Source: Alphaproteobacteria bacterium
Lineage (GTDB): Bacteria > Pseudomonadota > Alphaproteobacteria > Rs-D84
Direction of reading: 5' to 3'
NCBI GenBank assembly: GCA_017554365.1
Contig: JAFZIM010000052.1
Coordinates: 1-41,526 of the forward strand
Length of the DNA: 41,526 nucleotides
Each line of letters starts with the position of its first letter. The first letter of the stretch is position 1. The translations under genes were made by a program, and so were the position numbers. Positions 760-40,427 of the stretch are shown here, piece by piece. The notes under the pieces were generated by a model that had not been told where the DNA came from, ran no database searches, and saw nothing but the letters and a program-made list of their open reading frames with translations.

Positions 760-829
760 CTAAAACTTTGACTTTTGGTTTTTTTAGGTTAAAATTAAGG
801 GTCAAAAACAAGAAAATAAGGACTAAGTT

Positions 830-1096: not shown

Positions 1097-1208
1097 GAAT
1101 AGGTGGGTTTTTTGAGGTCTTGAATTTAATTTAATAATTCAAGGCAGTCGAAACCCGTTAACAAAGCAGCAGGGGATTGCCTTGCTTGCAGGATTAAGGA
1201 AAAAAGTT

Positions 1209-1583: not shown

Positions 1584-1612
1584 TACTTTTGACTAAAATA
1601 AAAGGTTAAGAC

Positions 1613-1915
1613 ATGAAAATTAAGAAAGGCGACGAAGTCGTAGTTATTTCGGGAAAATACAAAGGCGTCAAAGGTAAAGTATTACAAGCACGTCCAAGTG
1701 AATCCCGTGTAGTGGTTGAAGGTGTAAATCGTCATAAATGGCACATCAAACCAACACAAGAACAACCAGGTCATATTGTAGACCGCGAAGCACCTATACA
1801 TGTATCCAATGTTGCTTTGATTGATCCAAAAACAAAGAAAGCAACACGTGCTGGATTTAAAATGGAAGGTGATAAAAAGATTCGCGTTTCTAAAAAATCT
1901 GGAACAGAAATCTAA
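1613..1915 (+). CDS. rplX: 50S ribosomal protein L24
   Basis: 100 aa. [24 protein letters not shown] is the KOW motif typical of L24. Synteny agrees. Confidence 0.96.
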
Positions 1916-1923
1916 ACCAAATG

Positions 1924-1941
1924 ATTCCGCTGTTACGGAAT
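1924..1941 (+). repeat. Intergenic stem-loop (rplX-rplE spacer) with core TTCCGCTGTTACGG
   Basis: ATTCCG / CGGAAT 6-bp stem with loop CTGTTA. Same 14-nt core and same loop as the hairpin at 3882-3903. Confidence 0.6.
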
Positions 1942-1963
1942 TGATAACGAAAAGGTAAATAAA

Positions 1964-2509
1964 ATGCAAAGCAGATTGCGTGAAATATACGAAAAAAATG
2001 TTGTACCTGAATTAGTAAAAGAATTCGGATACACAAATATGTTTGCAGTTCCAAAATTGTCCAAAATCGTTTTGAATATGGGCGTTGGCGAAGCTGTATC
2101 AGATAAAAAGAAATTAGATTCTGCTGCTGCTGATTTGACAGCAATTGCAGCACAAAAATCAATTATCACACATGCAAAGAAATCTATTGCTACATATCGT
2201 TTACGCGAAGGTCAAGCAATTGGTACAAAAGTAACTTTGCGTGGTAAAAGAATGTATGATTTCTTGGATAAATTAATCACAGTGGCTTTGCCACGTGTAA
2301 AGGACTTCCGTGGATTGTCAAAATCTAAATTTGATGGTCGTGGAAATTATGCATTCGGTATCAAAGAACATTTGATATTCCCAGAAATTTCTGTTGATAA
2401 GATTGATGCTATCCGTGGTATGGATATCGTTATTGTTACAACAGCAAAAACAGATGATGAAGCTCGTGCATTGCTGACAAAAATCGGCTTGCCATTGGTT
2501 TTGAAATAA
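1964..2509 (+). CDS. rplE: 50S ribosomal protein L5
   Basis: 181 aa. [40 protein letters not shown] is characteristic of L5. Confidence 0.97.
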
Positions 2510-2524
2510 TATAAGGAAATAAAG

Positions 2525-2827
2525 ATGGCTAAATTAGCGTTGATAAACAAACAAAAGAAACGTGAAAAATTGGTCGCACAATATGCAAAAAAGCGCGAAT
2601 CAATTAAAGCAAAGATGTCCGTAAATGCAACACCAGAAGAACGTATGGAAGCCATGAAAAAATTGGCTAAGTTGCCTCGCAACGCAAATCCAACACGTTT
2701 GCATAATCGTTGCTCTATCACAGGTCGTGCACGTGGTTATTCCCGCATGTTCGGTTTGTGCCGTCAACAAGTTCGCACTATGGCGTCAGAAGGAAAATTA
2801 CCAGGTGTACGTAAATCCAGCTGGTAA
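2525..2827 (+). CDS. rpsN: 30S ribosomal protein S14 (long, non-zinc form)
   Basis: 100 aa, ending RCSITGRARGYSRMFGLCRQQVRTMASEGKLPGVRKSSW. Confidence 0.96.
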   Translation: MAKLALINKQKKREKLVAQYAKKRESIKAKMSVNATPEERMEAMKKLAKLPRNANPTRLHNRCSITGRARGYSRMFGLCRQQVRTMASEGKLPGVRKSSW

Positions 2828-2904
2828 GATTAAGTTAAACAAGCAAGCTGTGGACAATGCAGCCCAAGCGCAGAAGTAAAATTCTGCAAAACAAGGAGTA
2901 AAAT

Positions 2905-3303
2905 ATGTCACTTTCACATCCAATCGGAGATATGGTTACCCGCATTCGCAATGGTCAAAATGCAGGTAAAGAATTCGTCGCCGTTCCAAACAGCAAATTA
3001 CGTGCTGCAGTATTGGCGGTTTTGAAAGACGAAGGTTTCATAACAGATTTTCGCAAAGAACAAATTGATGAAACACGCGCAAATTTGGTTATTGAATTAA
3101 AATACGTTAATGGTAATGGTGCAATCCAAGAAATTACAGCCGTTTCTAAACCAGGACGTCGTGTATATTCTGGCAGTGCAAAAATGCCACGCGTTTTGAA
3201 CGGGTTGGGTATCGCTATCGTATCCACACCAAATGGTGTTATGACTGATCACAAAGCACGCTTGATGAATGTCGGCGGTGAAATATTGTGCAAAGTTATC
3301 TAA
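2905..3303 (+). CDS. rpsH: 30S ribosomal protein S8
   Basis: 132 aa. Contains the PIGDMVTRIRNGQNA motif typical of S8. Confidence 0.96.
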   Translation: MSLSHPIGDMVTRIRNGQNAGKEFVAVPNSKLRAAVLAVLKDEGFITDFRKEQIDETRANLVIELKYVNGNGAIQEITAVSKPGRRVYSGSAKMPRVLNGLGIAIVSTPNGVMTDHKARLMNVGGEILCKVI

Positions 3304-3318
3304 TAAAAGGAAATCGTT

Positions 3319-3870
3319 ATGTCTCGTGCAGGAAAATATCCAGTAGAAATTAAAAATGGCGTATCGGTTGAATTAACAGATAAAGCCGTAGTTGTAAAAG
3401 GACCAAAAGGCGAAATGCATGTTTCTTTGGAAACTAAAAATGCTAATTTGGTTAATATCAAAGTTGAAGATGGTCATGTTGTTGTCACACCTAAAGATGC
3501 AGAAGAAAAAGCATCTCGTGCTATGTGGGGAACAATGACTCGTAATATTAAATCAGCTGTTAAAGGTGTTTCAGAAGGTTTTTCAAAACCTATGTATATG
3601 AAAGGTGTTGGTTATAAAGCATCTGTCAAAGGTAACATCTTTACATTGGTTGTTGGATTTTCTCATGATGTAGTTATGGAAATCCCAGCTGGTTTGACAG
3701 TTACAATGGGTGAAACACCAACAGAATTTACAATTTCAGGTATTGATAAAAATTTGTTGGGACAATTTGCTGACAAGATTCATAAAATCCGTAAAGCAGA
3801 CCCATATAAAGGTAAAGGTATCTTCTATAAAGACGAATATGTCCGTCGTAAAGAAGGCAAGAAGAAATAA
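3319..3870 (+). CDS. rplF: 50S ribosomal protein L6
   Basis: 183 aa. MSRAGKYPVEIKNGVSVEL…VVVKGPKGEM and a C-terminal PYKGKGI…RRKEGKK are typical of L6. Confidence 0.96.
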   Translation: MSRAGKYPVEIKNGVSVELTDKAVVVKGPKGEMHVSLETKNANLVNIKVEDGHVVVTPKDAEEKASRAMWGTMTRNIKSAVKGVSEGFSKPMYMKGVGYKASVKGNIFTLVVGFSHDVVMEIPAGLTVTMGETPTEFTISGIDKNLLGQFADKIHKIRKADPYKGKGIFYKDEYVRRKEGKKK

Positions 3871-3881
3871 TAAAACAATAT

Positions 3882-3903
3882 AGTTTCCGCTGTTACGGGA
3901 ACT
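3882..3903 (+). repeat. Intergenic stem-loop (rplF-rplR spacer) with core TTCCGCTGTTACGG
   Basis: AGTTTCCG / CGGGAACT 8-bp stem (one G-U pair) with loop CTGTTA. Same core as the hairpin at 1924-1941. Confidence 0.6.
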
Positions 3904-3922
3904 GAAAAAAAGGAAAAACAAA

Positions 3923-4279
3923 ATGTTAAGACATTTATCTTCTGAAGAAAGACGTACATTGGCAAATCGCGGTGCGTTGAAAAGAAAGAATCCTGGCAAA
4001 ATTCGTTTGTCAGTATTCAGATCTGCTCGTCATATTGAAATTCAAGCTATTGATGATGTAAAAGGTCACACATTGTGTGCAGCATCTTCAAAAGAAAAAG
4101 ATTTCAAGGGCAAAGGTTGGAATATCGCTGGTGCTGAAATGGTTGGCAAATTATTTGCTGAACGTGCAGTTAAAGCAGGTATCAAAGACAATTGTTATTT
4201 TGATCGTGGTCGTTATTTATACCATGGTCGTGTAAAGGCCTTGGGCGATGCAGTTCGCGCAAACGGAATCAATATTTAA
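3923..4279 (+). CDS. rplR: 50S ribosomal protein L18
   Basis: 118 aa. RLSVFRSARHIEIQAIDD… and C-terminal FDRGRYLYHGRVKALGDAVRANG are typical of L18. Confidence 0.95.
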   Translation: MLRHLSSEERRTLANRGALKRKNPGKIRLSVFRSARHIEIQAIDDVKGHTLCAASSKEKDFKGKGWNIAGAEMVGKLFAERAVKAGIKDNCYFDRGRYLYHGRVKALGDAVRANGINI

Positions 4280-4296
4280 TCTAGGAGCAAAATACA

Positions 4297-4851
4297 ATGG
4301 CACGTTATGATGATAAAAAATTACAATCAGATAATTTGGTAGATAAATTAGTTTCTATCAACCGCGTTTCAAAAACAGTGAAGGGTGGACGTAATATGTC
4401 TTTCTCTGCATTGGTTGTTGTCGGGGATAAATCTGGTATGGTTGGTTTTGGTAAAGGTAAAGCATTGGAAGTCCAAGCCGCCGTTCAAAAAGCAACAAAA
4501 GCTGCAAAAGCAAAAATGATTCGCGTTCCTTTGAAAGAAGGTCGTACATTACACCACGATAGTTCTGCTAAATATGGCGCAAGTAAATTGGTTGTTCGCA
4601 GTGCTGTTCCAGGTACTGGAATCATCGCTGGTGGTGCTTTGCGTGCAGTATTTGAATGTTTGGGCGTTCAAGACGTTGTTGTTAAATCACAAGGTTCAAA
4701 TAATCCAAACAATATGATTCGTGCTGCTTTCTTGGCTTTTTCTAAAATGAATTCTCCAAAAAGTGTTGCTGCACGTCGTGGCAAATCAGTTGGTGAAATC
4801 ATTGCTGGCCGTGATGGTAAAAAAGTAGAAGTTCAAGAAGAAGCAAAATAA
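4297..4851 (+). CDS. rpsE: 30S ribosomal protein S5
   Basis: 184 aa. [38 protein letters not shown] is the S5 core. Confidence 0.97.
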
Positions 4852-12655: not shown

Positions 12656-13057
12656 TTATTTTTCGTTTCCAAGCAAAGATTTTCTGATTTTTATTTGAAT
12701 TCTTATATCACGAAGAATTCTTTTATTTATTGGTTGTATTCCTGTTTTGTATATTGAACCATCTGGGAATAAATACGCAACCGGCTGTTTTTCTTTGTTA
12801 TAATATTCAATAATTGTTGTTGATAATGTATAATCTGCCTTTTTTGGTACGTAAAAATATTCAAATAACATAGTGTAAGCATTTGGATTTGGAAATTGCT
12901 GTGTTGGAATTGCACCATCTTCGCTGATACTTAATACTTTGCCATTTATAGAATATATTGGTAATGCTGTCTGTTTAGCATGTGCAAAAGAATCACAAAA
13001 ATGTGAATTTAAATGTGCTAAATCTGCTTTATAAACATTTTTTCTTAATCTTGTCAT
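12656..13057 (-). CDS. Hypothetical protein, 133 aa, no recognisable family
   Basis: ORF with the ATG at 13057-13055 preceded by AGAGG (reverse complement of cctct at 13068-13072). I trimmed it from the longer ORF that begins at 13093. No signal peptide or motif that I recognise. Confidence 0.6.
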   Translation of the reverse strand: MTRLRKNVYKADLAHLNSHFCDSFAHAKQTALPIYSINGKVLSISEDGAIPTQQFPNPNAYTMLFEYFYVPKKADYTLSTTIIEYYNKEKQPVAYLFPDGSIYKTGIQPINKRILRDIRIQIKIRKSLLGNEK

Positions 13058-13174
13058 ATTATTTATACCTCTTTTTTTAGGGCAAGCCGACATAAACTAG
13101 CACTAAAAAAATGCTATGTCAAATAAGTTAGTTAATTTTTTTTTGTTTTTTTTGTATTTTTTTTATAAAAGCAC

Positions 13175-13203
13175 TTGTCAAAAAATGTATGTTATGATAA
13201 AAT
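13175..13203 (+). promoter_or_regulatory. Promoter candidate with extended -10 for P1
   Basis: TTGTCA (13175-13180), 17-nt spacer, TAAAAT (13198-13203), with TG at 13195-13196 (the string TGATAAAAT). Confidence 0.45.
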
Positions 13204-13228: not shown

Positions 13229-16042
13229 ATGAAAAAATTGTTAATTTTACCTGTGTTAATCGCTATGTGTATGGCGGATTTCGGCGCTTTTGCTGCTGCA
13301 CCACGTGGTGGAAGAACTGGCGGAACACCTGCTGCATCAAATGCTGGTGGTAATGTCAAAGCTGCTCGTGCTGCTAAACAAAACACCCAGGTCAAACCAG
13401 GAACAGCATCTGGTAAAGCAACTAGTGGTACAACAGGCAACAAAACATCAGGTTCTAATACTGGTAGTCAAAAGAATAGTGCGCCTGCTGCATCAAATGC
13501 TGGTGGTAATGTCAAAGCTGCTCGTGCTGCTGCTACACAGAAAGTGTTGAATACTGGAACAAAAATTGCACAGAAAACAGAAAATACTGTGGTACCTAAA
13601 GAATGTCAGGACGCATATTATGGCTGTATGGATACATTCTGTATGTTGGATAATACATCAGGTGGTCGTTGCCAATGTAGTGACAGAAGTAAAGATTTAA
13701 ACCCATTATTGGACGAAATTACAAAAATCGACCAAATTGCTTATACAATGGCTACCGAAGGTGTAGAAAGATTGCAAATGGGTGAAAATGCAGAACAGGT
13801 TATTGCGATGGCAAAAGCAGCAGGTGCAAAGGTTTCATCTACAGATAACAGTTTGGGAATTCAAAGTGCAGACGATTATGCTGCTAATGCTGGTAAAAAC
13901 AAAAAATCAACAAGAAAAGAATTGGATTTAAATGCATTCAAAGTGGGTGTATTTGATGACGATGATGATGTTTTTGGTGAAGATGAAAAATCAGAAGCCG
14001 AAAAGAAAGCAGAAGTTTTGGAAGACAGCATGGCAAATAAACTTGGTGATGATTTACGTTCTGCTGCAAATAAACTTTGTGTTGAACAAATGCCAAAACA
14101 ATGTGTAGATTCAACATCTATGTTGCAATTGGCTTATACACAAAAAATTAAATCAGATTGTAATGCATACGAAAATTCTTTGAAACAACAAAAGATTGCA
14201 AGTAATCAAAAATTGGCTGCTGCTGAAAAAGCATTACGTGAAGCCGCTCTTGAATCTTTTGAAAAAGAAAATAAATATGAATTGGGACCATGTATAACTG
14301 AATTTACAAAATGTATCCAAAAAGATGCAGGTTGTGGTGAAGATTATACAGGTTGTACAACTTTGTCTGCAAAAGACAATGTAAGAAACAAAACAGGTCA
14401 ACAAACAGTTATTCCAGGAACAACTGTTAAAATATCTGTTTCTACATTGGAAGCAATCACAGCAAAGAAATCAATGTGTGAACACATTACAAAACAATGT
14501 GTAAAGGCAAACCAAAATGATGCAGTATGGACAGCGTTCTTGAAAAATGTTGCACCTGCATTGAAATCAGCTGAAGAACTTGCAGAAGAAAAGTTACGTT
14601 TAGAATGTATACCAAACATTTCTGAATGTTTCCAAAAAGCTTGTGCACAGAAATTTGATCCAAAAGCAAAAGAAGCAAACTATGATTCATGTTTGTCTGA
14701 TCCTTCTATCGTAAAAGATTTATGTAAGGTAAAATTGGAACCATGTTTGGAAGCAACTGGTGGTTCTTATGCAAATGCTGAATCTTCTTCTTTGTGGAAT
14801 GGTGTTTTAGCGGCTTTGGGTGCTATGCGTGTTGATGCATGTACAAGTGAAGTAAAAGCATGTTTGGAATCTGATGATGTTTGTGGTAAAGATTACGGTA
14901 GATGTGTCGGTTTGGATACAGAATCTATCGGTGAAATGTGCCCAACAGATAAGTTGACTGCTTGTATGGCAAAGAATGAGAATAATGAATCTACTGTACG
15001 TGCATATGTTGCAAGAGTTGCACAAGGTATCGCATTAGGTATTGATAGCAATATGCTTACCGTTTGTCAAAAAGCTGCTGATGATGCTATGACAAAGGTT
15101 TGTGGTGCAACTGATTCTTGTGAATCTTTGACATTTGATGGCAGAATATTTGCTGATAATTTAAATGTCCAAGTATGTAGAAAAGGTGCTGAGGGTGTGT
15201 ATGAATGTGCTAATACAGCTGATGGTTTCGATGCCAAATATGTTTTGAATGGTGAAGTAGTTCCAAATATTACAGGCATGTTTGATTTGGCAACTATAAC
15301 ATTCGATACAGAAAATGGTTTTGGTGTTGATACTGGATTGGCCTCTTATACAGAAAAGACCAGTAACGGACGTTATTATACAGGTGATAAATGGGCTGAC
15401 AGTGTTGCAAAACAATTAAACGCAGCAATAAATGCTAAATGGAATACAATTAAATCTGACCCAACAGTCACATATTGTATGGAAGGTCGTCAAGTCCAAG
15501 GTTTTGATAGCAAGAAATTTGGTAAAAAGAATGATAAAGAATCTATACGTTTTCCAAACTTGTTAGACAACAAGAGAGATGTTATGATTTATGCTTTATA
15601 TAAATCAATGTCTTCTGCATATTCTGATGCATTGGATGGATTACAAGAAAAACGTGAAGCTGCTCAAAAGACCATTGATGATCGTTTAGCAAGAATTGAT
15701 GGTGCTGGTGAATCAGCTCAGGATAGATTAAATGAAAGTGCATGTCAGAGTGGTTATGCTAGACCTGACCCTAACTGGAATGGTGATAGAAATAAGAGAC
15801 GTGCTAGAGCATATATAAGACAGCTTGTTGATGTTAATGCATCTTATAATGCGGACACAAATGTATGTACTGCTGAAACAATGCAATATACATGTACTAA
15901 ATATTTATCACCAAGTTGTAGAATCTTTGACAATGGAACAAAGACAAAGACAAAGACAATACAAATGCATAAATATAACAGAGAGGATGCATTGGGTAGT
16001 AATGGTTATACAGCGAAACCAAAAAATCCTGATGAATTCTAA
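13229..16042 (+). CDS. P1: secreted cysteine-rich protein, unrecognised paralogous family (937 aa)
   Basis: ATG at 13229 is 6 nt after AAGGAG. Signal peptide MKKLLILPVLIAMCMADFGAFA. Family signature CQDAYYGCMDTFCMLDNTSGGRCQC at 13604-13678. Long blocks are shared with P2, P3 and P6. Confidence 0.92.
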   Translation: MKKLLILPVLIAMCMADFGAFAAAPRGGRTGGTPAASNAGGNVKAARAAKQNTQVKPGTASGKATSGTTGNKTSGSNTGSQKNSAPAASNAGGNVKAARAAATQKVLNTGTKIAQKTENTVVPKECQDAYYGCMDTFCMLDNTSGGRCQCSDRSKDLNPLLDEITKIDQIAYTMATEGVERLQMGENAEQVIAMAKAAGAKVSSTDNSLGIQSADDYAANAGKNKKSTRKELDLNAFKVGVFDDDDDVFGEDEKSEAEKKAEVLEDSMANKLGDDLRSAANKLCVEQMPKQCVDSTSMLQLAYTQKIKSDCNAYENSLKQQKIASNQKLAAAEKALREAALESFEKENKYELGPCITEFTKCIQKDAGCGEDYTGCTTLSAKDNVRNKTGQQTVIPGTTVKISVSTLEAITAKKSMCEHITKQCVKANQNDAVWTAFLKNVAPALKSAEELAEEKLRLECIPNISECFQKACAQKFDPKAKEANYDSCLSDPSIVKDLCKVKLEPCLEATGGSYANAESSSLWNGVLAALGAMRVDACTSEVKACLESDDVCGKDYGRCVGLDTESIGEMCPTDKLTACMAKNENNESTVRAYVARVAQGIALGIDSNMLTVCQKAADDAMTKVCGATDSCESLTFDGRIFADNLNVQVCRKGAEGVYECANTADGFDAKYVLNGEVVPNITGMFDLATITFDTENGFGVDTGLASYTEKTSNGRYYTGDKWADSVAKQLNAAINAKWNTIKSDPTVTYCMEGRQVQGFDSKKFGKKNDKESIRFPNLLDNKRDVMIYALYKSMSSAYSDALDGLQEKREAAQKTIDDRLARIDGAGESAQDRLNESACQSGYARPDPNWNGDRNKRRARAYIRQLVDVNASYNADTNVCTAETMQYTCTKYLSPSCRIFDNGTKTKTKTIQMHKYNREDALGSNGYTAKPKNPDEF
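13328..13375 (+). repeat. Perfect 48-bp direct repeat, copy 1 (inside P1)
   Basis: cctgctgcatcaaatgctggtggtaatgtcaaagctgctcgtgctgct, encoding PAASNAGGNVKAARAA. Confidence 0.95.
13484..13531 (+). repeat. Perfect 48-bp direct repeat, copy 2 (inside P1)
   Basis: Identical 48-mer located 156 nt (52 codons, in frame) downstream of copy 1. Confidence 0.95.
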
Positions 16043-16046
16043 AAAA

Positions 16047-16068
16047 ATGCCCTTCGGGGCATTTTTTA
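16047..16068 (+). terminator. Rho-independent terminator after P1
   Basis: ATGCCC (16047-16052) / GGGCAT (16057-16062), loop TTCG, then a T-run. Confidence 0.75.
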
Positions 16069-16192
16069 TTGGTTGTGAATATTTGTATAAAATATTTTTT
16101 ATATCCAAATTTTTGATTTATATTTTTTGAAAAATTTTTTATCAAATTTCTTTCTTTTTCACTATAAAAGTGTTTTTTTTAATGCCTTTTTA

Positions 16193-16201
16193 TGTTATAA
16201 T
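16193..16201 (+). promoter_or_regulatory. Extended -10 promoter candidate for the P2-P3 operon
   Basis: TGtTATAAT at 16193-16201, about 30 nt upstream of the P2 ATG. No convincing -35 element. Confidence 0.35.
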
Positions 16202-16231
16202 TTACAAAGATTATAGTAGAGAGATTTTTTC

Positions 16232-18817
16232 ATGCCAAAAATATTTTATGCTTTGTTAATGTTGGTGGTTGTTATGCCTGAAAATGTCAGTGCGGCTGTG
16301 AATCGTGCGCGTGCTGGGGCTTCACAAAAAGTTGTTAATGCTGGAACCAAGGTTGCTGCTGCAACTAAATCAAATTTATTAGACAAAGATTGCGAAGAAT
16401 CTTTCTTTGGTTGTTTAGATGCTTTCTGTGTTGTTGAAAATGTTTCTGGGGGGCGTTGTGTTTGCAGTAATAAACATGCAGATTTGTCAGCACAACTTGA
16501 TGAAATTTTAAAAATGGACGAAGATGCCTATGCTATATCTACATACGGCGTTGAACATATAAATTTAGGTAAAGCAGCGGATAGCGTTATATCTGCTTCT
16601 GAAAAGGCATTTGATAAAGCAAAAAAAGATGCAGAAGACGAAGATTTAACAGAAAAGAAATCTGCTGAACCAGTTAAGAAAAAAACTCTCAGTTTTGATG
16701 AATGGAATAAATCTTTTGGTGGTGATGATGACGATGAAGATGAAGAAGAAACTGCATCACTTGATGAAGATGATATTTCAAATAAAAAGGGCGATGAATT
16801 ATATATTGCCGCTGCAAAAATGTGTTGGACTCAGGTGCCAGATAAATGTAAACCAAAAGAAGAAATGGCAAAAATGCTTTATACACAAAAAATCAAATCT
16901 GATTGTGCTGCATTTGAAAATAGTGTAAAGCAGAAAAGAACAGAAAGCACAAATAAACTTGAAACTGCAAAGAAAAATGTTCGTGATGCTGCGTTTGAAA
17001 GTTTACAAGCGTCTAATAAATTTGATATGGGACAATGTGCGATTGAATATGTTTCTTGTTTGCGTAAAGATGATATTTGTGGCAAAGATTTAACAAAATG
17101 TGTGACGTTGGCTGCAAATGAAAATGTGACAAAAGGCGAATCGGAACAAGTCGAAATCAAAGGCGAATTTTCAAGTATTTCTATTGCTGCTTCTACGATG
17201 GATTCTTTGAATGCAAAACGTGCAATGTGTGCCAGTGTGACAGACCAATGTTCTTCGGTTGATAAAGATGAATTGTGGACTTTGGTTTTGAAAAATATCG
17301 CACCTGAATTAAAGAATGCAGAATTAATTGCTGAATCTGATTTACGTGGTAATTGTTTAACAAATATTTCTGAATGTTATTTGAAAGCATGTAAAGATAA
17401 TATGGACCCAAAAGATCCTGATGGTTCATACGATATGTGTTTGGCAAGACCAGACAATTATAAATCTTTCTGTAAAGTTCAATTAGAACCATGTTTGGCT
17501 GCAACAGGTGGTTCGTATGATGATCCTGATTCATCAACTTTGTGGCGTGGGGTTTTAGCAAAATTAGCTGCAATGCGTGTTGATGCATGTACTGATGAAT
17601 TTAAATCTTGTTTACAAAGTGAAGACAGATGTGGCGAAGATTATTCACAATGTATTGGTCTTGACAATGATGATGTTGCGAAATTATGTCCAGAAGATAA
17701 ATTGCCTGCATGTTATAAAGAATACAATGGGAAAGTTGAAAGTGTTAATGAAACACTTGAAAGAATTGCCCAAGGTGTCATGTTAAATGTTGATAATGGT
17801 TTGTTGGCTGCATGTGAAAATGCTATCAATGAAGCAATGGTCAAGGTTTGTGGTGATGCTGAAAATTGTAATAAATTGGCAGTTGATAGTGGTATTGGTT
17901 CAAGAACTTTGAAATTAGAATATTGTGAAACAACTGACGAAGGTTATGTAAATTGTAAACAAGATGTTGGTTTAATTACAGATATTGAATTGGGTAAAAC
18001 AACACGTGATTCTAATTTAAAAACTACCAAGCATGATATTCATTTCTTTTCAGGTGTATATCGTGGTGTGATAGATTGGAGTGCTATATCAGTCAATGAT
18101 GATGTTAGTGGTATTACAGATTATGATGAATATGCTGAAAAAGCGGCTGATAGTTTAAAGAATATGAATGAAGATGAAAAAACAAGAATTAAATCTGAAA
18201 TTGGTTCATTAGCCAGTGCTATTAAGAATGCAATATCTGCTGTAGAATCTGATCCAAAAATTCAATTCTGCACCACAGGTCGTCAGGTTGAAGGTTTGGC
18301 GAATGATGAAGGATTTACACAAAAAATAGGCAAGGGTAATAATCCTTCTTTCCCAAATATTACACAAACTATGCGTAATATGATTGTGAATTCTGCATTA
18401 CAGCAAGCACGTGAAAATTACAATAAAAAATTGTCTGAATTGGAAAAGCAGGAAGCCGAAGAATCACAAGGTTTGGCAAGCCGTATTGCACAAATCAGTG
18501 GTGAAAATGAAAAAGTTGTGAAGCAAGATATGGCAAGAAAAGCATGTATTGCTTTGGCTGAAAAAGATAAACTTGGTGAATCTGTTGGTAGTTCCGTGAA
18601 GAAAGCGATTGAACGTGTTTCTGGTAGCGATGGTAAATTAACAGGACATAGTGCTGAATCTTCTTATAATTACAAAAGAAGTATTACTACTACATTTAAT
18701 TTGGAAGATATGATTTGTCATAAATGTATCAGAACACAACATTGTGAAAAGACAAAAACAAGTTATTGTAAACAATGGGGTGAAGAAGTAGAAACCTGTG
18801 AAGACATACATTATTAA
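16232..18817 (+). CDS. P2: secreted cysteine-rich protein, same paralogous family (861 aa)
   Basis: Signal peptide MPKIFYALLMLVVVMPENVSA. Signature CEESFFGCLDAFCVVENVSGGRCVC at 16391-16465. 38 Cys by hand count. C-terminal tail CHKCIRTQHCEKTKTSYCKQWGEEVETCEDIHY. Confidence 0.92.
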   Translation: MPKIFYALLMLVVVMPENVSAAVNRARAGASQKVVNAGTKVAAATKSNLLDKDCEESFFGCLDAFCVVENVSGGRCVCSNKHADLSAQLDEILKMDEDAYAISTYGVEHINLGKAADSVISASEKAFDKAKKDAEDEDLTEKKSAEPVKKKTLSFDEWNKSFGGDDDDEDEEETASLDEDDISNKKGDELYIAAAKMCWTQVPDKCKPKEEMAKMLYTQKIKSDCAAFENSVKQKRTESTNKLETAKKNVRDAAFESLQASNKFDMGQCAIEYVSCLRKDDICGKDLTKCVTLAANENVTKGESEQVEIKGEFSSISIAASTMDSLNAKRAMCASVTDQCSSVDKDELWTLVLKNIAPELKNAELIAESDLRGNCLTNISECYLKACKDNMDPKDPDGSYDMCLARPDNYKSFCKVQLEPCLAATGGSYDDPDSSTLWRGVLAKLAAMRVDACTDEFKSCLQSEDRCGEDYSQCIGLDNDDVAKLCPEDKLPACYKEYNGKVESVNETLERIAQGVMLNVDNGLLAACENAINEAMVKVCGDAENCNKLAVDSGIGSRTLKLEYCETTDEGYVNCKQDVGLITDIELGKTTRDSNLKTTKHDIHFFSGVYRGVIDWSAISVNDDVSGITDYDEYAEKAADSLKNMNEDEKTRIKSEIGSLASAIKNAISAVESDPKIQFCTTGRQVEGLANDEGFTQKIGKGNNPSFPNITQTMRNMIVNSALQQARENYNKKLSELEKQEAEESQGLASRIAQISGENEKVVKQDMARKACIALAEKDKLGESVGSSVKKAIERVSGSDGKLTGHSAESSYNYKRSITTTFNLEDMICHKCIRTQHCEKTKTSYCKQWGEEVETCEDIHY

Positions 18818-18819
18818 AG

Positions 18820-21552
18820 ATGAAAAATATTTTGAAATTCTTATTGTTAGCAATTGTATGTTGCATGTTTAATGCAGATGGTTTCGCTGCACGTGCACCT
18901 GTGAAATCAAGCAATCAAAATAAACCTGTACAAAAAGCACGTGCTGCTTCGGGTCAAAAGGCAATAAATTTAGGAACAAAAATTCAGGTTGCAACAACCA
19001 CATCTTCGCCATGTCAGGAAAAATACGATGCGTGTATGGATACTGGGTGTGTGATGGATAATGATTCCGGTGGTCGTTGTTTGTGTTCTGATCAATACAA
19101 AGATTTAAGTGATAAATTAGAAGAATTAAAAAAGAAAGATGCTGATACTTACAAAATCGCAAATATTGCCAAAGCAAGCATAGAAGATGGCGAAGATGTT
19201 GATGAAGCCATGGATTCCATCTTTGGTGATGAAGAAAGTGATTTCGATGTTAGCCCGGCTTCATCAGGTGCAACTGGGGATAAATTGCGTGCAGAAATGC
19301 ATAATATTTGTATTGAAAAAATACCTGAATGTAAATTGCAATTTGTTTTGGTTAAAAATATGTATATTCAGAAAATCAAATCAGATTGTGCCGCTTTTGA
19401 TAATGCTTTGCGGGAACAAAGTATCGCAAGCAAAGAAAAAAGGGCAGAAGCAAAAAAAATGGTGCGTGAAGCAGCCCTTGAAAAATATGAAGAAAATAAC
19501 AAATATGATTTGGGTCAATGTACAATTGAATTCACAAAATGTATAAAAACAACTGCTGAATGTGGCAATGATTTTACTGGCTGTGTTGATAGTGTTGGTA
19601 AAGATAAAATTTATGGCAAAGACATAGATGTATTTACTATCAAAGGTGAAAATTCTTCTGTGGTAATTGCTAAATCAACATACGAAATGTTGGAAAGTAA
19701 AAAATTAATTTGCGAAAGTGTTTTGAAAAATTGTGTTGATGTCAAAGACGAAGTTTGGAACGCGTTTTTGGCAAATTCTGCACCTGAAATAAAATTGGCA
19801 GAAAATAAATCAGAATCAAATATTCGTTCGTCTTGTTTGGAAAATATTTCAAATTGTTTTATTAATGCGTGCAAAGATAGTATCGAAGGTGATGACAAAG
19901 AATCTTATGATATGTGTTTGACACGTCCTGAAACGATGAAATCTTTGTGTCGTGTTCAAATGGAACCATGTTTGGCTGCAACTGGTGGTTCGTATGATGA
20001 ACCTGAAAAATCAACTTTATGGCCAAGCGTTTTAGCAAAATTATCTGCTATGCGTGCTGATTCTTGCACTGAAGAAATGAAAGAATGTATGCAAAGTGAA
20101 GACAGATGTGGCCCAGATTATGCAAATTGTATTGGGTTGGATACAAATATAATTATGCGTATGTGCCCGTATGATAAATTGCCTGGCTGTCAAAAAGTTT
20201 ATGGTGAAGATAAAATCCAAGGCGATGAAATTTATGACGAAGTTGCCAGAATTATCGAAGGCGTAATATTAAATATTGATAATGATTTATTAAAGGTTTG
20301 TGAAAATGCTGCTGAAACAGCAATGACAAAAGTTTGTGGTTCTGCTGAAAGTTGTGAGGTTTATGCAGCAGGTGGAAAAATTGGCGCACAATCTTTGAAA
20401 TATCAGGTTTGCCAATATTCAACAGATTCCCCAGATTCAACCGAAGGTTTCAAATGGTTCGATTGTCGCGAAAGTTTAGATCAAATATCTGATGCTGAAT
20501 TGGGACGTGTACAAGACGCCAAAAATGAAGAATTGGGTAATGTAAAACCATTTGCTGGTGTTATATCTGGTGTTATTAAATGGGAATCAGTAGAAATAAC
20601 AGACGATGGTTTAATTGATATAGATAAATATATGGAAGCATTAGAAAAAGAAAAAATCACAGAAGAAGAACGTGTTCGTGTCAAAGCAGAAATAGAGCAG
20701 GTGCAATCAGATATTAATCGTGTTATTTCATCTGTGGAACAAGACCAATGGTTGCAATTTTGTATTTCGGGTCGTCATATAACGGGCGTGACGGACAGAT
20801 TTGCGGATAATAAAGTACGTTTTCCAAAATTGGCAAATAATGTCCGTAAACAAATTGCTACCGCTGCATTACATCAGGCAAAAGAAAATTATTATGCCGA
20901 ATATGATAAATTATCCGCACAAATGCAACAAGATTTGGTGACAATAAGCGAAAGATTGGCAAATAACTTAAAAGAAAATGGCAAAGATGCTAAAAAAGCA
21001 GCGGCACGTGAGGCATGTGTTAATTTAGCTGCTGTGTCAGCATTTGCCAAAGCACCAGTCGGTCAATCTTTGTGGGCAAAGATTATTGTTGGTATAATTG
21101 TTGTTGCTGCGATTATTGTTGCAACAGTGTTTACATGTGGTGTTGCTGGTGGTGCTTCACTTGGATTTTTAGCAGGTGTTGCTACTGGTTCAATGATAAC
21201 TTCGGTGGTAGGGACTATTTCGGCAACGGGGGCTTTGATTGCGGCGTCAACTGCGACTGCCGTTGCTGGTGCCGCGGGAATTTCAGCAGCAGTTGATGCT
21301 GGTATAAATGCAACAACTGATAATAGTAAAATAGCAGCAGGAGAACAAACACAAAATCATGGTGAATATGCGGCGAATGAATGGAATTATCAAGAAAAAA
21401 TAACAACAGATTTTGATAATGATACAATGATTTGTAAGAAATGTGTTGTGAATCGTAAGTGTCGTTCTACAAAATGGTCTATATTCCGTGATAGATATTG
21501 TTCTAGTTGGGATCCTTATAGTGAACCAAGATGTACTGAAATTCAATTCTAA
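18820..21552 (+). CDS. P3: cysteine-rich protein of the same family with a C-proximal Gly/Ala-rich hydrophobic (glycine-zipper-like) region (910 aa)
   Basis: ATG lies 2 nt after the P2 stop, which suggests translational coupling. Signal peptide MKNILKFLLLAIVCCMFNADGFA. Signature CQEKYDACMDTGCVMDNDSGGRCLC at 19012-19086. Hydrophobic region at about 21073-21300. Tail CKKCVVNRKC…CSSWDPYSEPRCTEIQF. Confidence 0.92.
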   Translation: MKNILKFLLLAIVCCMFNADGFAARAPVKSSNQNKPVQKARAASGQKAINLGTKIQVATTTSSPCQEKYDACMDTGCVMDNDSGGRCLCSDQYKDLSDKLEELKKKDADTYKIANIAKASIEDGEDVDEAMDSIFGDEESDFDVSPASSGATGDKLRAEMHNICIEKIPECKLQFVLVKNMYIQKIKSDCAAFDNALREQSIASKEKRAEAKKMVREAALEKYEENNKYDLGQCTIEFTKCIKTTAECGNDFTGCVDSVGKDKIYGKDIDVFTIKGENSSVVIAKSTYEMLESKKLICESVLKNCVDVKDEVWNAFLANSAPEIKLAENKSESNIRSSCLENISNCFINACKDSIEGDDKESYDMCLTRPETMKSLCRVQMEPCLAATGGSYDEPEKSTLWPSVLAKLSAMRADSCTEEMKECMQSEDRCGPDYANCIGLDTNIIMRMCPYDKLPGCQKVYGEDKIQGDEIYDEVARIIEGVILNIDNDLLKVCENAAETAMTKVCGSAESCEVYAAGGKIGAQSLKYQVCQYSTDSPDSTEGFKWFDCRESLDQISDAELGRVQDAKNEELGNVKPFAGVISGVIKWESVEITDDGLIDIDKYMEALEKEKITEEERVRVKAEIEQVQSDINRVISSVEQDQWLQFCISGRHITGVTDRFADNKVRFPKLANNVRKQIATAALHQAKENYYAEYDKLSAQMQQDLVTISERLANNLKENGKDAKKAAAREACVNLAAVSAFAKAPVGQSLWAKIIVGIIVVAAIIVATVFTCGVAGGASLGFLAGVATGSMITSVVGTISATGALIAASTATAVAGAAGISAAVDAGINATTDNSKIAAGEQTQNHGEYAANEWNYQEKITTDFDNDTMICKKCVVNRKCRSTKWSIFRDRYCSSWDPYSEPRCTEIQF

Positions 21553-21555
21553 ATT

Positions 21556-21579
21556 AAAAACACCCGATTGGGTGTTTTT
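21556..21579. terminator. Bidirectional rho-independent terminator between P3 and the convergent 330-aa gene
   Basis: AAAAACACCC (21556-21565) / GGGTGTTTTT (21570-21579), loop GATT. A/T runs on both sides. Confidence 0.75.
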
Positions 21580-22572
21580 TTATTCTAATTCTTCCAAATT
21601 CTTTACAACACGTATTCCCATTGATTCAAATTTTTTTATTGTTTCGTCTATGTCCATTATATTTTGTGAACGTAAATATATTGTTGGAATAAATGGCGTG
21701 TCTTTTGATAATGTTAATAATTTTTGTATTGGTGATTCTTTCTGTTTGCCTGCTGCAAACCATGTGTCATCGTCCATTATCCAAAAATCTTCATCACTAT
21801 GTTCGTAAATTAAATTTTTATCAGAGCAAACAAATTCATCAATGATTTCATAATTGATATGTTTTGCATCAAAATATTTTGTTGTGAAATTTTCTAATTT
21901 GTTTTCTTCTTTGGATGTTAATTCGTCATCAAAATTTATATCTTTGAATTGTGGAATTGATAAATCTTCATTCATATTTAATGAAAAATCATTTGCTGAA
22001 TTTTGGTCGTCATTATCAAAAGGTAAATCAAAATCAGTTGGTATTGGGAAATCTTCCGGTGTTGGTTCGTTATTTGTTGGTTTTGGTTTTGTGTCGTTGT
22101 CTGTTTTGTTATATACAGATACGGCCCCCATCAAAGATTGATGATGTTTTGCACGCATATATGGAACTTTTAATTCAGGTGGCATATCAGATGGAAATAT
22201 ATTTTCTTCCGATTCGGTTTCTTCTGTTTCTTTCTTTTCTTCTTCATCAGCCACCGGGGCAGGTTTAGAAAATTTTGTTTTTATAAATTCAAATATTTTA
22301 TCTATAAATGGAATTTTTATTAATGATGCTTTATTTTTATATACGTTTATTGATGTTGCAATATAAATTGGAATTGCTGTGTACATCAATGTCGCAAATA
22401 CAAAACCTGCAAAACCATGAAAAGATGCGTGAAAAAATTTCCACCAATGATTTGCTGAAAAAGCATCAAAATTGAATATATATTGCAAAATCAACCAAAG
22501 AATAAAAAAGTATTCTATGGTCCATTTTACCAATTCAATATTTGTTTTAAAAAATTCTTTTATCTTTTGCAT
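21580..22572 (-). CDS. Hypothetical membrane protein (330 aa): N-terminal TM helices, acidic disordered linker, C-terminal globular domain
   Basis: Hydrophobic stretches WTIEYFFILWLILQYIF and FAGFVFATLMYTAIPIYIATSI. These are followed by a D/E/P/T-rich stretch, then an ordered C-terminal domain of about 100 aa. No family recognised. Confidence 0.7.
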   Translation of the reverse strand: MQKIKEFFKTNIELVKWTIEYFFILWLILQYIFNFDAFSANHWWKFFHASFHGFAGFVFATLMYTAIPIYIATSINVYKNKASLIKIPFIDKIFEFIKTKFSKPAPVADEEEKKETEETESEENIFPSDMPPELKVPYMRAKHHQSLMGAVSVYNKTDNDTKPKPTNNEPTPEDFPIPTDFDLPFDNDDQNSANDFSLNMNEDLSIPQFKDINFDDELTSKEENKLENFTTKYFDAKHINYEIIDEFVCSDKNLIYEHSDEDFWIMDDDTWFAAGKQKESPIQKLLTLSKDTPFIPTIYLRSQNIMDIDETIKKFESMGIRVVKNLEELE

Positions 22573-22681: not shown

Positions 22682-22710
22682 AATTTCATAAGAATTTGGG
22701 GGAAAGTAGT

Positions 22711-24885
22711 ATGAAAATATCAAATACATTTGGTTTTATGATGACGAGTTTGGCTGTCATGGCGACTTGTAGCGGTTTTGCTGCAAATAATGGACGCAGT
22801 ATGATGCAACAGGCAACTAATGTTGCTCGTATGCCGACAATGCCTGTCGTATCAATAAATTCTGTGGGAAATCCTGCTGTGCAAAATATAAATTTGCCTG
22901 TCAATAACAATACAGGTAGTATTATTCCTACACCTGTACCAAATCCAGATACCCCAACTCCAAATCCTTCTAAGTGCGAAGATGGTGGTGTAGAAAATTC
23001 TACTTATACTGCATCTATGTGTATGAATGATATTTTACAATGTATCAATACAGGCGCTTTGCAGGGCGGTTTGAATGATATGTTTAACGAAGATGTCCGT
23101 AATGCTATTATGGGCGGAATGCGTATCTGTCAAATGCATGTTGATAAATGTATTACCGAAGTTCGTGTAAATTGTAAAAATGTTTATCATGAAGCAACTG
23201 ATGTATGGCTTGATTTCAATTCAAGAATTGTTCAACCAGAATATTATAATTTCGTATTGCGTAAAACTGGGTTGACACCACATCAGGCAGAAAATACATG
23301 TTTGTTGTTGGATAGAAATGCTTATGGTTCTTCTTTCGCAGCGGTTTCTGATACAAATGTTGTAAATACAGAATACAATAATTTGGTCGGTGCATATAAT
23401 TCTGCAAATGGTGGAACTTTGTCCAAAGATAATCCACAAGGTGTTGCAGTAAATACCGTTGGTTATGATGGAAACCGCGGTCATTATGCACGTTGGGACG
23501 CATCTAATGCTGAATGTTTAATCCGTGTTGGTGCTTATAACAAAGATAAATCTATTACAAACAGCTGGTTGTTTGGTGCTGTGGGTAATGATAATGTTGC
23601 AGAAGTTTGGCAGAAAGCCGGTTCTACATTTACTTGCAACAAAGATTTGTTCGGATTTTCTTTGATGAATGATACAAAGACAGCCGCAGTTATCGGTGTT
23701 GGTGGTGGTACTTTGGTTGGTGCTGCTATCGGTGCTGGTGCAGGTGCTGCTGTGTATAACAAGAAAGCCAAAGAAGCCCAAGCAGAAAGCGATAGATTAG
23801 CAGAACAGGGTGCTAACCCATGTAATGACGAAGAATATCGTAAAAAATTGTCTGCAAAAATTATGCAAACACCTGATCGTAAAGATGAAGTGTTGAAAAC
23901 TTATTTGTATGAATCTGTTAACTTAAAGACAGATAATCAGGGTAAAAAGCAAGCTGAAATTGATACTGCTTCTTCAAACAAATTGTTTGGCCCAGATACA
24001 GATTGGTACAATTTAAACAAAGAACAATGCGATGCAATTTTGGGATTGTATTCAAAAGCTGCTGTGTATAAAGACGCTATTGAAAAATGTAGAAATGTCG
24101 ATACTAACAGGGTTATTTTGAATCAAATGCCATCAAATCAAACTGCATTTGAAAAATTGGAAATTGTTGATGCTTATGGCAATAAATTGTTGATGTCTGG
24201 TTCTGTTCAATGTGGTATGGCAAACAATATCACAGATAATCAGGTCAGAACATTTAATGAAACTTGCTTGTTCGTTCCATTACAGGTCGGTTTCGCAGTA
24301 GAACATAATGATTCACCTTTCTGTAATCACAATGGTAAATGCTTAACAGTTAACCAAATTGAAAACGAATTAAGCAGAATGAAATCATTGTTGACAAAGA
24401 TTGAACCTGTTGTTCCTGCTGGTATTGCAAGTGGTGAAACAAAATTAAGCAAGGGCAAAGAAATCGGTAAAGGTCTTGCTATCGGTGCTGTCACAGGTGC
24501 TGCTGCTGGTGGTTTAGCAACTGCAATTACAGCATTCGTAGAACGTAGCAACATTACATGTAAAGTCGGTGATGGTTTGAATTCTGTTGCATTGGGTAAA
24601 TCTCATACCATAGATTCTTTGAAAGATTTCTATGTAAAATGGAATTTACATTTACCTGATACAGTATCCCCAACATCTGCTGTTGTTGACAGAACATCTT
24701 GGGATGCTGCATGTGCACAATTCAATGGCAAATTACATGATTGTCCACGTGTTCAAATCAATTTGAAAAATGCACATGGTAAATATACTTTGGTTCAAGG
24801 CGCATGTGTTGTTTCAGGTTCAATTTGTATAACAAATGATTCTGTTGCAGCATCACATGGTGCAGCATCACATGATGCAGAATAA
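22711..24885 (+). CDS. P7: cysteine-rich envelope protein with two glycine-zipper-like hydrophobic segments (724 aa); unknown function
   Basis: ATG at 22711 follows GGGGGAAAG. Signal peptide MKISNTFGFMMTSLAVMATCSGFA. A Pro-rich linker (PTPVPNPDTPTPNPS) follows. Cys occur throughout. Gly/Ala segments are TAAVIGVGGGTLVGAAIGAGAGAAVY (23680-23757) and GLAIGAVTGAAAGGLATAITAFV (24472-24540). Confidence 0.88.
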   Translation: MKISNTFGFMMTSLAVMATCSGFAANNGRSMMQQATNVARMPTMPVVSINSVGNPAVQNINLPVNNNTGSIIPTPVPNPDTPTPNPSKCEDGGVENSTYTASMCMNDILQCINTGALQGGLNDMFNEDVRNAIMGGMRICQMHVDKCITEVRVNCKNVYHEATDVWLDFNSRIVQPEYYNFVLRKTGLTPHQAENTCLLLDRNAYGSSFAAVSDTNVVNTEYNNLVGAYNSANGGTLSKDNPQGVAVNTVGYDGNRGHYARWDASNAECLIRVGAYNKDKSITNSWLFGAVGNDNVAEVWQKAGSTFTCNKDLFGFSLMNDTKTAAVIGVGGGTLVGAAIGAGAGAAVYNKKAKEAQAESDRLAEQGANPCNDEEYRKKLSAKIMQTPDRKDEVLKTYLYESVNLKTDNQGKKQAEIDTASSNKLFGPDTDWYNLNKEQCDAILGLYSKAAVYKDAIEKCRNVDTNRVILNQMPSNQTAFEKLEIVDAYGNKLLMSGSVQCGMANNITDNQVRTFNETCLFVPLQVGFAVEHNDSPFCNHNGKCLTVNQIENELSRMKSLLTKIEPVVPAGIASGETKLSKGKEIGKGLAIGAVTGAAAGGLATAITAFVERSNITCKVGDGLNSVALGKSHTIDSLKDFYVKWNLHLPDTVSPTSAVVDRTSWDAACAQFNGKLHDCPRVQINLKNAHGKYTLVQGACVVSGSICITNDSVAASHGAASHDAE

Positions 24886-40381: not shown

Positions 40382-40427
40382 TTTGTTCTTTTTTTATGTT
40401 GTTTTTTGTGATATAATTATATTTGAT

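Follow-up and report, generated by a model that had tools for sequence, protein, structure and literature searches.

A lineage-restricted family of probably Sec-exported, cysteine-rich proteins encoded beside rpoA in a Candidatus Enterousia bacterium, and its possible place in the cell envelope

What are the three large cysteine-rich proteins that are encoded in tandem beside the ribosomal protein and rpoA operon on contig JAFZIM010000052.1 (assembly GCA_017554365.1), and what could a gut alphaproteobacterium use them for? The window analysed here is the whole stretch of 41,526 nt of this contig, and the proteins are referred to as P1, P2 and P3. A preliminary description, made from the sequence alone, had reported them as consecutive same-strand open reading frames (ORFs) of 937, 861 and 910 aa that begin with Sec-type signal peptides, align block by block and belong to no recognisable family. 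The ORF listing and translation confirm the coordinates and the shared + strand:

P1: 13229..16042, + strand, 937 aa from its ATG; family profile match at E 8.5e-270.
P2: 16232..18817, + strand, 861 aa, soluble-type member with 38 conserved Cys and a C-terminal Cys-rich beta module, ending in DIHY.
P3: 18820..21552, + strand, 910 aa, membrane-segment-type member; family profile match at E 3.8e-296.

The paralogy of the three proteins is far beyond chance. BLASTP aligned P1 with P2 at 37% identity over 768 aa (E 7e-170), P2 with P3 at 39% over 815 aa (E 3e-179) and P1 with P3 at 35% over 765 aa (E 6e-136), in agreement with the block-wise alignment proposed earlier. Only its RFP.L block needs correction: P1 and P3 have it, whereas P2 has SFPNI at this place. 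A family profile was built from 51 homologues, whose alignment (A1) defines the family, and the large ORFs of the window were scored against it. P1, P2 and P3 matched at E ≤1e-229, as did one further ORF, P7, and two more distant members, P5 and P6, were recovered:

P5: 32361..34718, - strand, distant family member, profile E 1.4e-46, likely start at the ATG at 34691.
P6: 35135..37372, + strand, family member, profile E 1.6e-56, likely start at the ATG at 35171.
P7: 37379..39871, + strand, soluble-type family member, profile E 9e-230, starting 6 nt after the P6 stop.

Membership is defined by a full-length profile match together with an N-terminal Cx6Cx4Cx9CxC module and two four-Cys repeats; P6 additionally carries a Gly-zipper-like segment inserted within its C-terminal Cys module. 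Together the six members (P1, P2, P3, P5, P6 and P7) occupy 15.2 kb, or 36.7% of the window. The preliminary description had put such proteins at about 49%; the arithmetic is correct (20,337 of 41,526 nt, eight ORFs), but that figure mixes families. The two other large ORFs which it had grouped with P1–P3, P0 and Px, are distinct, with profile E values of 8 and 3.9, respectively, and an hhalign probability of 2% between the family and Px alignments.

The cysteines bear on how these proteins might be built. The hand count of 38 Cys in P2 was correct, and the positions are conserved in orthologues: A1 shows 30 of them without variation and the remaining 8 with at least 90% conservation. P1 has 37 Cys, one of them in the signal peptide, which leaves 36; of the 41 Cys in P3, 38 remain once two signal-peptide Cys and one in a hydrophobic segment are set aside. 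The Cys content is about 4.4%. Covariation was measured in a deliberately diverse alignment of 84 sequences, using P2 numbering. In this set the Cys downstream of the signal peptide are even in number in 90% of the members, and the variable Cys vanish two at a time: 375–421 and 387–403 (both phi 1.0), 460–486 (phi 0.86), 565–575 (phi 0.93), 772–829 (phi 0.86) and 832–856 (phi 0.97). The Cys pairs have a constant sum of positions (i+j of 796/796/790; 946/947; 1688/1684), and the partners are located on neighbouring antiparallel helices or strands in the P2 structure model described below. Further probable partners are 382–414, 453–494, 467–474 and 838–846, and by analogy 269–340, 276–333 and 283–290 may be paired as well. 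The spacings include Cx6C, Cx4C and Cx10C, with regular runs such as Cx6Cx6Cx6C, and no conserved His accompanies the conserved Cys in A1. Two copies of a 25-residue motif stand out in P2:

First four-Cys repeat, CxxE[FY]xxCxxxxxxCGxDxxxC, 25 residues: 17036..17110, + strand, P2 residues 269–293.
Second four-Cys repeat, 25 residues: 17588..17662, + strand, P2 residues 453–477.

The two repeats are related to each other, as hhalign of the corresponding sub-alignments gave probabilities of 95–97% (E 1e-11 to 2.6e-8). A larger internal duplication of the N-terminal half against the middle of the protein was considered and rejected; the repetition is confined to the 25-residue motif, and the Cx6Cx4C modules fail to align. 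The paired loss of Cys in combination with the even counts argues for intramolecular disulfide staples, rather than a lattice of free Cys or metal sites, and each protein is apparently held by about 18–19 such bonds. The all-disulfide extracytoplasmic fold suggested previously is in line with both the counts and the six covarying pairs, whereas oxidation in vivo is something that we infer.

All three proteins have the Sec-type signal peptides that had been ascribed to them, with a basic n-region, a hydrophobic core of 10–18 residues, small residues at -3/-1 and no twin-arginine motif. The putative cleavage sites are MKKLLILPVLIAMCMADFGAFAA/A in P1, MPKIFYALLMLVVVMPENVSAA/V in P2 and MKNILKFLLLAIVCCMFNADGFA/A in P3. 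By a hydropathy heuristic, a signal-type N-terminus (M-[KR][KR], hydrophobic core, AxA-like end) is found in 81/84 of the diverse members, and a twin-arginine n-region in none of the 84. A motif, ARAAxxQKVxxxGTKV, is conserved right after the signal peptide (window positions 16301–16366, P2 residues 24–45, and the equivalent positions of the paralogues) and is disordered in the P2 model. The members are of two types with respect to a second hydrophobic region:

P3 hydrophobic insert, residues 745–825: 21052..21294, + strand, located just before the C-terminal Cys-rich module.

The P3 insert consists of one strongly hydrophobic helix (LWAKIIVGIIVVAAIIVATVF, Kyte–Doolittle maximum 2.99) followed by Gly/Ala-rich hydrophobic segments, and an insert of this kind lies 100–150 residues before the C-terminus in 83/235 full-length members. 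A two-pass hairpin at this position would leave both the N-terminal part of P3 and its C-terminal Cys module outside the cytoplasm, which fits all Cys being extracytoplasmic. The C-terminal ends of the family are also characteristic, 154/235 full-length members having F, Y or M as the last residue, most often in the form D[IT]QF:

D[IT]Q[FYM] tail: P2 18803–18814 and P3 21538–21549, + strand, at the C-terminal ends; also in P6 and P7.

P1 lacks this tail. Although the tail resembles the last residues of a porin beta-signal, the possibility that it serves as the beta-signal of an outer-membrane barrel was rejected, as the preceding strand is polar and charged (e.g. ..EEVETCEDIHY) and has no profile match; likewise, neither Pfam nor Foldseek returned an outer-membrane protein or autotransporter anchor (e.g. 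YadA_anchor, PF03895).

An AlphaFold2 model of P2, calculated from the 51-sequence alignment, reached a mean predicted local distance difference test score (pLDDT) of 71.8 and a predicted template-modelling score of 0.44. It comprises a disordered N-terminal linker (1–47), long helices between residues 52 and 540 with an acidic, disordered loop (136–180) among them, a mixed region (560–700), two long helices (712–777) and a five-stranded C-terminal beta module (794–860). An acidic loop of D/E runs, at residues 136–185 of P2, is present in all paralogues. A Foldseek search with this model gave no match at E ≤0.001, the best values being 0.16 and 0.26 (PDB, BFVD), and the local similarities to levivirus coats or LAMP domains were of low probability. 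The AlphaFold and Foldseek analysis proposed in the preliminary description hence yields a moderately confident, helical model of P2 with no fold match.

At the DNA level, several elements were located around and within the three genes:

P1 promoter-like site, TTGTCA, 17 nt, TG-n-TAAAAT: 13175..13203, + strand, from a consensus scan, conserved in relatives.
Exact 48-nt direct duplication in the P1 linker (family D7, 100% identity): 13328..13375 and 13484..13531, + strand.
Terminator-like hairpin after P1, an 11-pair stem followed by a T run: 16042..16067, + strand.
Terminator-like hairpin after P3, a hairpin followed by a T run: 21556..21579, + strand.

Taken alone, the promoter-like element that had been reported for P1 is at chance level, as 48 promoter-like hexamers were seen in the window against 45 expected from shuffled sequence. 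Its -35 box, extended -10 box and Shine–Dalgarno sequence are, however, conserved upstream of the P1 orthologues in four related genomes (loci L079, L006, L014 and L015). The hairpin and T run at the end of P1 agree with the terminator reported before, and P1 is presumably transcribed separately. P2 and P3 appear to form an operon: as described earlier, 2 nt lie between the stop codon of P2 and the start of P3, and the corresponding gap is 2–47 nt among relatives. An in-frame TTG at 13175, upstream of the P1 ATG, would yield a protein of 955 aa. This start was rejected, since orthologues begin at the MKK/MRK signal peptide and the apparent conservation of an upstream "peptide" is explained by the conserved -10 box and Shine–Dalgarno sequence. 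The Shine–Dalgarno sequence that precedes the ATG is AAGGAG. From its ATG, P1 runs from a Sec signal peptide through a basic low-complexity linker and a Cys-stapled helical core to a divergent C-terminal third. The 48-nt duplication, whose copies lie 156 nt apart, encodes PAASNAGGNVKAARAA twice within the linker. The window's own P1 is represented in the public protein collection only by a truncated product of 764 aa (P0390), and the full 937-aa form with its signal peptide is backed by orthologues. Minus-strand or alternative-frame ORFs inside the genes (17193–17588, 18869–19177 and 19187–19546) were set aside because the long frames are kept across species. Rfam and tRNA scans of the window gave no match.

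The survey of relatives that had been suggested revealed a large family with a narrow range. A word-indexed search returned at least 625 homologues, all of them unnamed or annotated as hypothetical protein and derived from metagenome-assembled genomes (MAGs) of gut Alphaproteobacteria or Candidatus Enterousia; for the taxonomic range, only those matches that carry an organism name are informative. Among 1.84 billion representatives, an exhaustive profile search picked out 930 clusters (clustered at 50% identity), and 514 stretches of species-representative genomes encode a relative; no relatives were found on viral contigs. Retrieval of related loci gave 78, all in MAGs from rumen, faecal or caecal samples of sheep, goat, deer, yak, horse, chicken and human; one of the loci is on a circular chromosome of 958,618 bp. 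The RpoA of the window is 86–89% identical to that of homologue-bearing gut MAGs assigned to Candidatus Enterousia or Alphaproteobacteria, which identifies the source organism, by sequence, as a member of Candidatus Enterousia, order Rs-D84, and agrees with the host-associated alphaproteobacterium assumed at the outset. Two loci come from bins with other labels. L018, from a bin labelled Bacteroides fragilis, carries family members together with an Enterousia-type RpoA that is 86% identical to that of the window, and consequently looks mis-binned. L069, from a Muribaculaceae-labelled bin, carries a family member and has no core-gene match; here mis-binning is only presumed.

Enterousia has been placed in the order Rs-D84, whose genomes are below 1 Mb, lack amino-acid, nucleotide and lipid biosynthesis, respiration and standard transporters, and encode many hypothetical membrane proteins (PMC12306168). 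They occur widely in the guts of humans, ruminants, horses and birds, and their way of life is not known (PMC12306168). In the literature on Enterousia, and on Rs-D84 in combination with cysteine-rich proteins, no description of the P1–P3 family was found. The earlier failure to recognise any Pfam-type domain was borne out, as Pfam, NCBIfam and PHROG scans of the eight large ORFs of the window and of the 51 homologues gave only sub-threshold noise. Searches against PDB sequences (phmmer and profile) yielded nothing better than E 0.032, to coiled-coil-like chains, and with the Foldseek result there is no confident hit to a characterised family in any of these collections. On these searches the family is undescribed and, as far as found here, confined to the Rs-D84 / Candidatus Enterousia lineage. 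It represents a new family and probably a new architecture or fold, the fold model being of moderate confidence.

The genomic setting of the family is well conserved. The order rpoA–rplQ–[1–4 family genes]–orf330(-)–Px–ccrM(-)–nrdR–slt recurs across related loci, with the family copy number at the locus varying from 1 to 4. In a neighbour-joining tree of 143 members, each of P1, P2, P3, P5, P6 and P7 groups with orthologues of its own from other genomes, the P5 clade including members from L027, L038, L040 and L049, and the P5(-)–P6–P7 trio is syntenic in relatives. The best DNA identity between paralogues is 64–80% over about 230 nt, which argues against recent gene conversion. By sequence, the six members in the window are thus old, stable orthologous groups that are not interchangeable, rather than a shuffling contingency family. 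Where two members are adjacent, a soluble-type gene is followed by a membrane-segment-type gene in about 26 loci, and the reverse order was never observed at this locus.

The ratio of non-synonymous to synonymous substitution rates (dN/dS) was computed between the window and its nearest relative, L079, a contig of 174 kb:

NrdR: dN/dS 0.015, amino-acid identity 98.8%.
RpsK: dN/dS 0.03, identity 99.2%.
CcrM: dN/dS 0.05, identity 95.6%.
RpoA: dN/dS 0.07, identity 96.0%.
Slt: dN/dS 0.08, identity 93.4%.
P2: dN/dS 0.15, identity 85%.
P3: dN/dS 0.16, identity 80%.
RplQ: dN/dS 0.18, identity 92.3%.
Px: dN/dS 0.19, identity 86%.
P1: dN/dS 0.36, identity 63%.
P0: dN/dS 0.50, identity 36% (974 vs 1250 aa).
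Hypervariable C-terminal third of P1, residues 599–937: 15023..16039, + strand, 22–38% identity, ratio of the non-synonymous to synonymous proportions (pN/pS) 0.64–0.94, with higher pS.

P2 and P3 are clearly under purifying selection and, in sliding windows, are constrained along their length except for the hydrophobic insert, which is the most variable part of P3. P1 residues 119–598 are 68–98% identical to L079, and all 37 Cys of P1 are kept despite the variable tail. Across species RpoA retains 86–89% identity, compared with 37–64% for P1–P3. Judged by sequence, the genes are real and constrained, yet evolve much faster than core genes and include one exposed-looking variable region in P1. 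Such fast evolution relative to core genes is typical of extracytoplasmic proteins.

Other genes lie around the P1–P3 locus:

P0: 7856–10780, + strand, 974 aa, Sec signal, 69 Cys, many CxxC; between rpsK and rpoA, unrelated to P1–P3.
orf145: 12656–13093, - strand, small ORF between rplQ and P1, no family; 49% identical to its L079 counterpart, dN/dS 0.79.
orf330: 21580..22572, - strand, N-terminal membrane helices, acidic low-complexity linker and C-terminal domain; dN/dS 0.35.
Px: 22696..24885, + strand, separate orphan family, signal peptide, 22 Cys; 746 homologues, all unnamed.

In 58/78 related loci orf330 lies between the family genes and Px on the opposite strand, and it has no Pfam, NCBIfam or PHROG match. 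Px adjoins family genes in 55/78 loci and contains two Gly/Ala-rich hydrophobic segments (residues 329–350 and 593–614); its scores against the glycine-zipper families PF13441 and PF05433, 13.1 and 12.4 bits (E 0.08–0.15), are below the cut-offs of 28.9 and 24.2. Its AlphaFold2 model has a pLDDT of 64, and Foldseek found no fold match. At the position of P0, L079 encodes a protein of 1250 aa (802–4554) that is 36% identical, while RpsK is 99% identical, and Cys-rich ORFs of varying size (494–817 aa) occupy this position in L006, L013, L014 and L015. Assignment of P0 to the Giardia-type CXXC VSP (PF03302) or furin-like Cys-rich repeats was considered and rejected, there being no Pfam, NCBIfam or PHROG match despite the many CxxC. 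The small orf145 could be a gene that evolves fast, or a spurious ORF. The second cluster of family genes, P5(-), P6 and P7 (32361–39871), is parted from the first in the window by the ccrM to clpX genes; in L038, L040 and L049 the trio directly follows Px or a family gene, and the two clusters could have arisen when a single ancestral island was split secondarily. At the end of the window, a BOF (periplasmic OB-fold) gene (39982–40356) precedes a 346-aa ORF (40359–41399, + strand) that ends in ...MLGLRFEF, a typical outer-membrane beta-barrel end, and has no Pfam or NCBIfam match. The barrel-like end together with the BOF gene supports a diderm envelope.

How, then, might the proteins work? 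In the reading that we favour, to which we would give about an even chance, they form a lineage-specific, hetero-oligomeric, disulfide-stapled helical envelope assembly that is anchored by P3-type subunits. P1–P3 would be made with a Sec signal peptide, exported over the cell membrane and oxidatively folded outside the cytoplasm. Each would adopt a mostly alpha-helical, multi-domain fold in which helical hairpins and a small C-terminal beta module are stapled by disulfides. P2 would be soluble, whereas the hydrophobic hairpin about 100–150 residues from the C-terminus would hold P3 in a membrane, so that P3-type subunits could anchor a hetero-oligomeric structure that includes the soluble types. 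The fastest-evolving parts would then face the environment or a partner cell on which this biosynthesis-poor bacterium presumably depends. The main, indirect argument is the conserved operon pair of a soluble followed by an anchored type, which suggests a hetero-oligomeric assembly. The molecular description of the proteins is much more secure than the assembly and the function, both of which, like the localisation, are read from sequence.

Several observations count against this proposal. The suggested hetero-oligomerisation draws on gene order only, and expression, export, oxidation and localisation are each predicted. The gut habitat of the organism is reducing and anoxic, and no dsbA, dsbB or VKOR was seen in a crude screen for CxxC/thioredoxin motifs, which covered the window and 79 loci (1.35 Mb) of the same genomic neighbourhood only and is uninformative. 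The P2 model is of moderate confidence, and both domain packing and fold novelty are uncertain. Finally, a Sec signal combined with a membrane hairpin argues for an inner-membrane-anchored protein facing the periplasm, and surface exposure in a diderm does not follow from it.

The last point leads directly to the strongest rival, a periplasmic or trans-envelope scaffold or conduit that is anchored in the inner membrane via the P3 types and exposes nothing on the surface, which we regard as unlikely. Its hairpins of 8–9 nm would cross the periplasm, reinforce it or make up a channel, and the helices of about 60 residues in the P2 model (76–136 and 204–261), the failure to find an autotransporter, a lipobox or a convincing beta-signal for outer-membrane delivery, and a lineage without standard transporters (PMC12306168) are all consistent with it, as is the topology of signal peptide plus internal hairpin, with its periplasmic domains. 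Foldseek, however, shows no likeness to TolC, periplasmic adaptor proteins or other envelope-spanning folds, the tail of P1 is hypervariable, and the rates of change are high for a purely internal scaffold (RpoA 87% vs P2 47–60% across species). A second rival is a variable adhesin or antigen family, in which alternative surface proteins diversify to evade host immunity or phages or to switch partners, an explanation we consider improbable. In its favour, P1 599–937 is only 22–38% identical, and its pN/pS reaches 0.94, between two genomes whose RpsK and RpoA are 96–99% identical; the alignments of many P1-type homologues cover no more than 59–77% of the query, and the copy number at the locus varies. 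Against it stand the six stable orthologous groups in conserved order, purifying selection on P2 and P3, soluble and anchored types that are structurally distinct and not interchangeable, and the fact that no silent cassettes, repeats or gene-conversion tracts were found. The diversifying surface or adhesin family proposed in the preliminary description is therefore retained only for the C-terminal third of P1 and the unrelated P0, both hypervariable, and does not describe the family at large, with its stable clades, conserved order and dN/dS of about 0.15 in P2 and P3. The DBL domains of Plasmodium PfEMP1 and the trypanosome VSG are likewise large, mainly helical, Cys-scaffolded extracytoplasmic proteins of multigene families in dependent organisms that combine a conserved Cys skeleton with fast-changing surfaces (here the P1 tail); there is no homology (Pfam and Foldseek negative), and the P1–P3 paralogues are stable groups under purifying selection and not a switching repertoire.

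A membrane-active effector, in which the Gly/Ala-rich segments of P3 and P6 insert into the membrane of a partner cell in a pore- or fusion-like manner and the stapled helices act as a delivery scaffold, appears very improbable. Uptake of metabolites from other cells has been predicted for the lineage, the Gly/Ala-rich segment is the most variable part of P3, and P3 766–825 and P6 690–728 resemble fusion peptides and class II bacteriocins in composition. The corresponding Pfam matches (GP41, E 0.06; Bacteriocin_IIc, E 0.047) are far below threshold and probably compositional, though, and the P3 insert begins with a transmembrane helix of the ordinary, strongly hydrophobic kind that is most simply an anchor in the cell's own membrane; Pfam and NCBIfam scans of the window returned no toxin, secretion-system or immunity gene nearby. 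Segments of the GxxxG type in P3, P6 and Px are also reminiscent of glycine-zipper proteins (Rickettsia 17-kDa antigen, PF05433; YMGG, PF13441), but the sub-threshold matches are confined to Px and the segments are short insertions in unrelated proteins of far greater size. Highly doubtful is a rigid shell of proteins cross-linked by intermolecular disulfides, the lattice resembling the chlamydial cysteine-rich outer-membrane complex that had been hypothesised for this locus. As with OmcB, OmcA and MOMP, these are exported, very Cys-rich proteins of a reduced-genome, host-associated bacterium for which a disulfide-dependent structural role in the envelope is proposed. The chlamydial complex is intermolecularly cross-linked, whereas the even counts in 90% of the members, the six pairs gained or lost together (phi 0.86–1.0) and their positions, which fit antiparallel helix or strand ladders, point indirectly to all Cys being in intramolecular pairs, with no spare Cys evident. 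Furthermore, Pfam and NCBIfam scans of the eight proteins and the 51 homologues gave no sequence or profile similarity to OmcA, OmcB or MOMP, the predicted fold is helical and not of the beta-rich OmcB type, and the lineage has peptidoglycan genes (Slt in the window; MreB, RodA and MrdA), so that a disulfide shell is not needed as a cell-wall substitute. Scarcely credible, in our view, is that the conserved Cys hold Zn or Fe–S centres instead of disulfides. The anoxic habitat, the outcome of the crude neighbourhood screen for Dsb genes and the regular Cys spacings could be taken to favour such centres; the Cys, however, covary in twos and not in threes or fours, no conserved His and no metal-binding family match were found, and the signals are of the Sec and not the Tat type. 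Cofactor-loaded exported proteins normally use Tat.

Two further systems resemble the family in construction. The CHCH domain of the mitochondrial intermembrane space (twin CX9C, PF06747) is, like the individual modules here, an antiparallel helical hairpin locked by a disulfide ladder, for which the probable ladder C375–C421, C382–C414 and C387–C403 in P2 is an example. CHCH has twin CX9C and two staples, in contrast to the Cx6Cx4C / Cx10Cx6C and three staples of this family, which has no Pfam match and is bacterial, Sec-exported and multi-domain. The Helicobacter Hcp proteins (Sel1-like, PF08238) are also secreted, helical, multi-paralogue proteins of a host-associated proteobacterium with disulfide-bridged helix pairs. 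They are built of 36-residue repeats with one disulfide each, whereas this family has only the 25-residue four-Cys motif, twice; no Sel1/TPR repeat was detected in the P1–P3 family, and P1–P3 are three to four times larger. The likeness to CHCH, Hcp/Sel1, DBL and VSG lies in how the family may work.

The novelty that we claim is at the level of the family and probably of the fold. Its members probably represent a new fold class whose disulfide map can be read. They also give a practical entry into an uncultured lineage (localisation, pull-downs, cryo-electron tomography and partner identification) and a test case for how a minimal-genome anaerobe oxidises about 19 disulfides per protein. Together with Px and orf330, the family might even form a cell–cell contact or envelope-spanning apparatus, a disulfide-stapled helical stalk anchored in the cell's own membrane, with Gly/Ala-rich, fusion-peptide-like segments and the hypervariable P1 tail as a recognition tip; we regard this as rather improbable. 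If true, such a contact apparatus would let a bacterium with a genome below 1 Mb and few transporters or biosynthetic pathways attach to and tap a partner cell, and would be an alphaproteobacterial counterpart of the feeding interface of the Patescibacteria, itself still not known. From this window alone the family would account for about 1.7% of a genome of about 0.9 Mb, as estimated from genome sizes in the lineage, and its genes are kept in order beside the ribosomal protein and rpoA operon. That a streamlined genome spends so much on one family suggests that the proteins are central to how these bacteria live.

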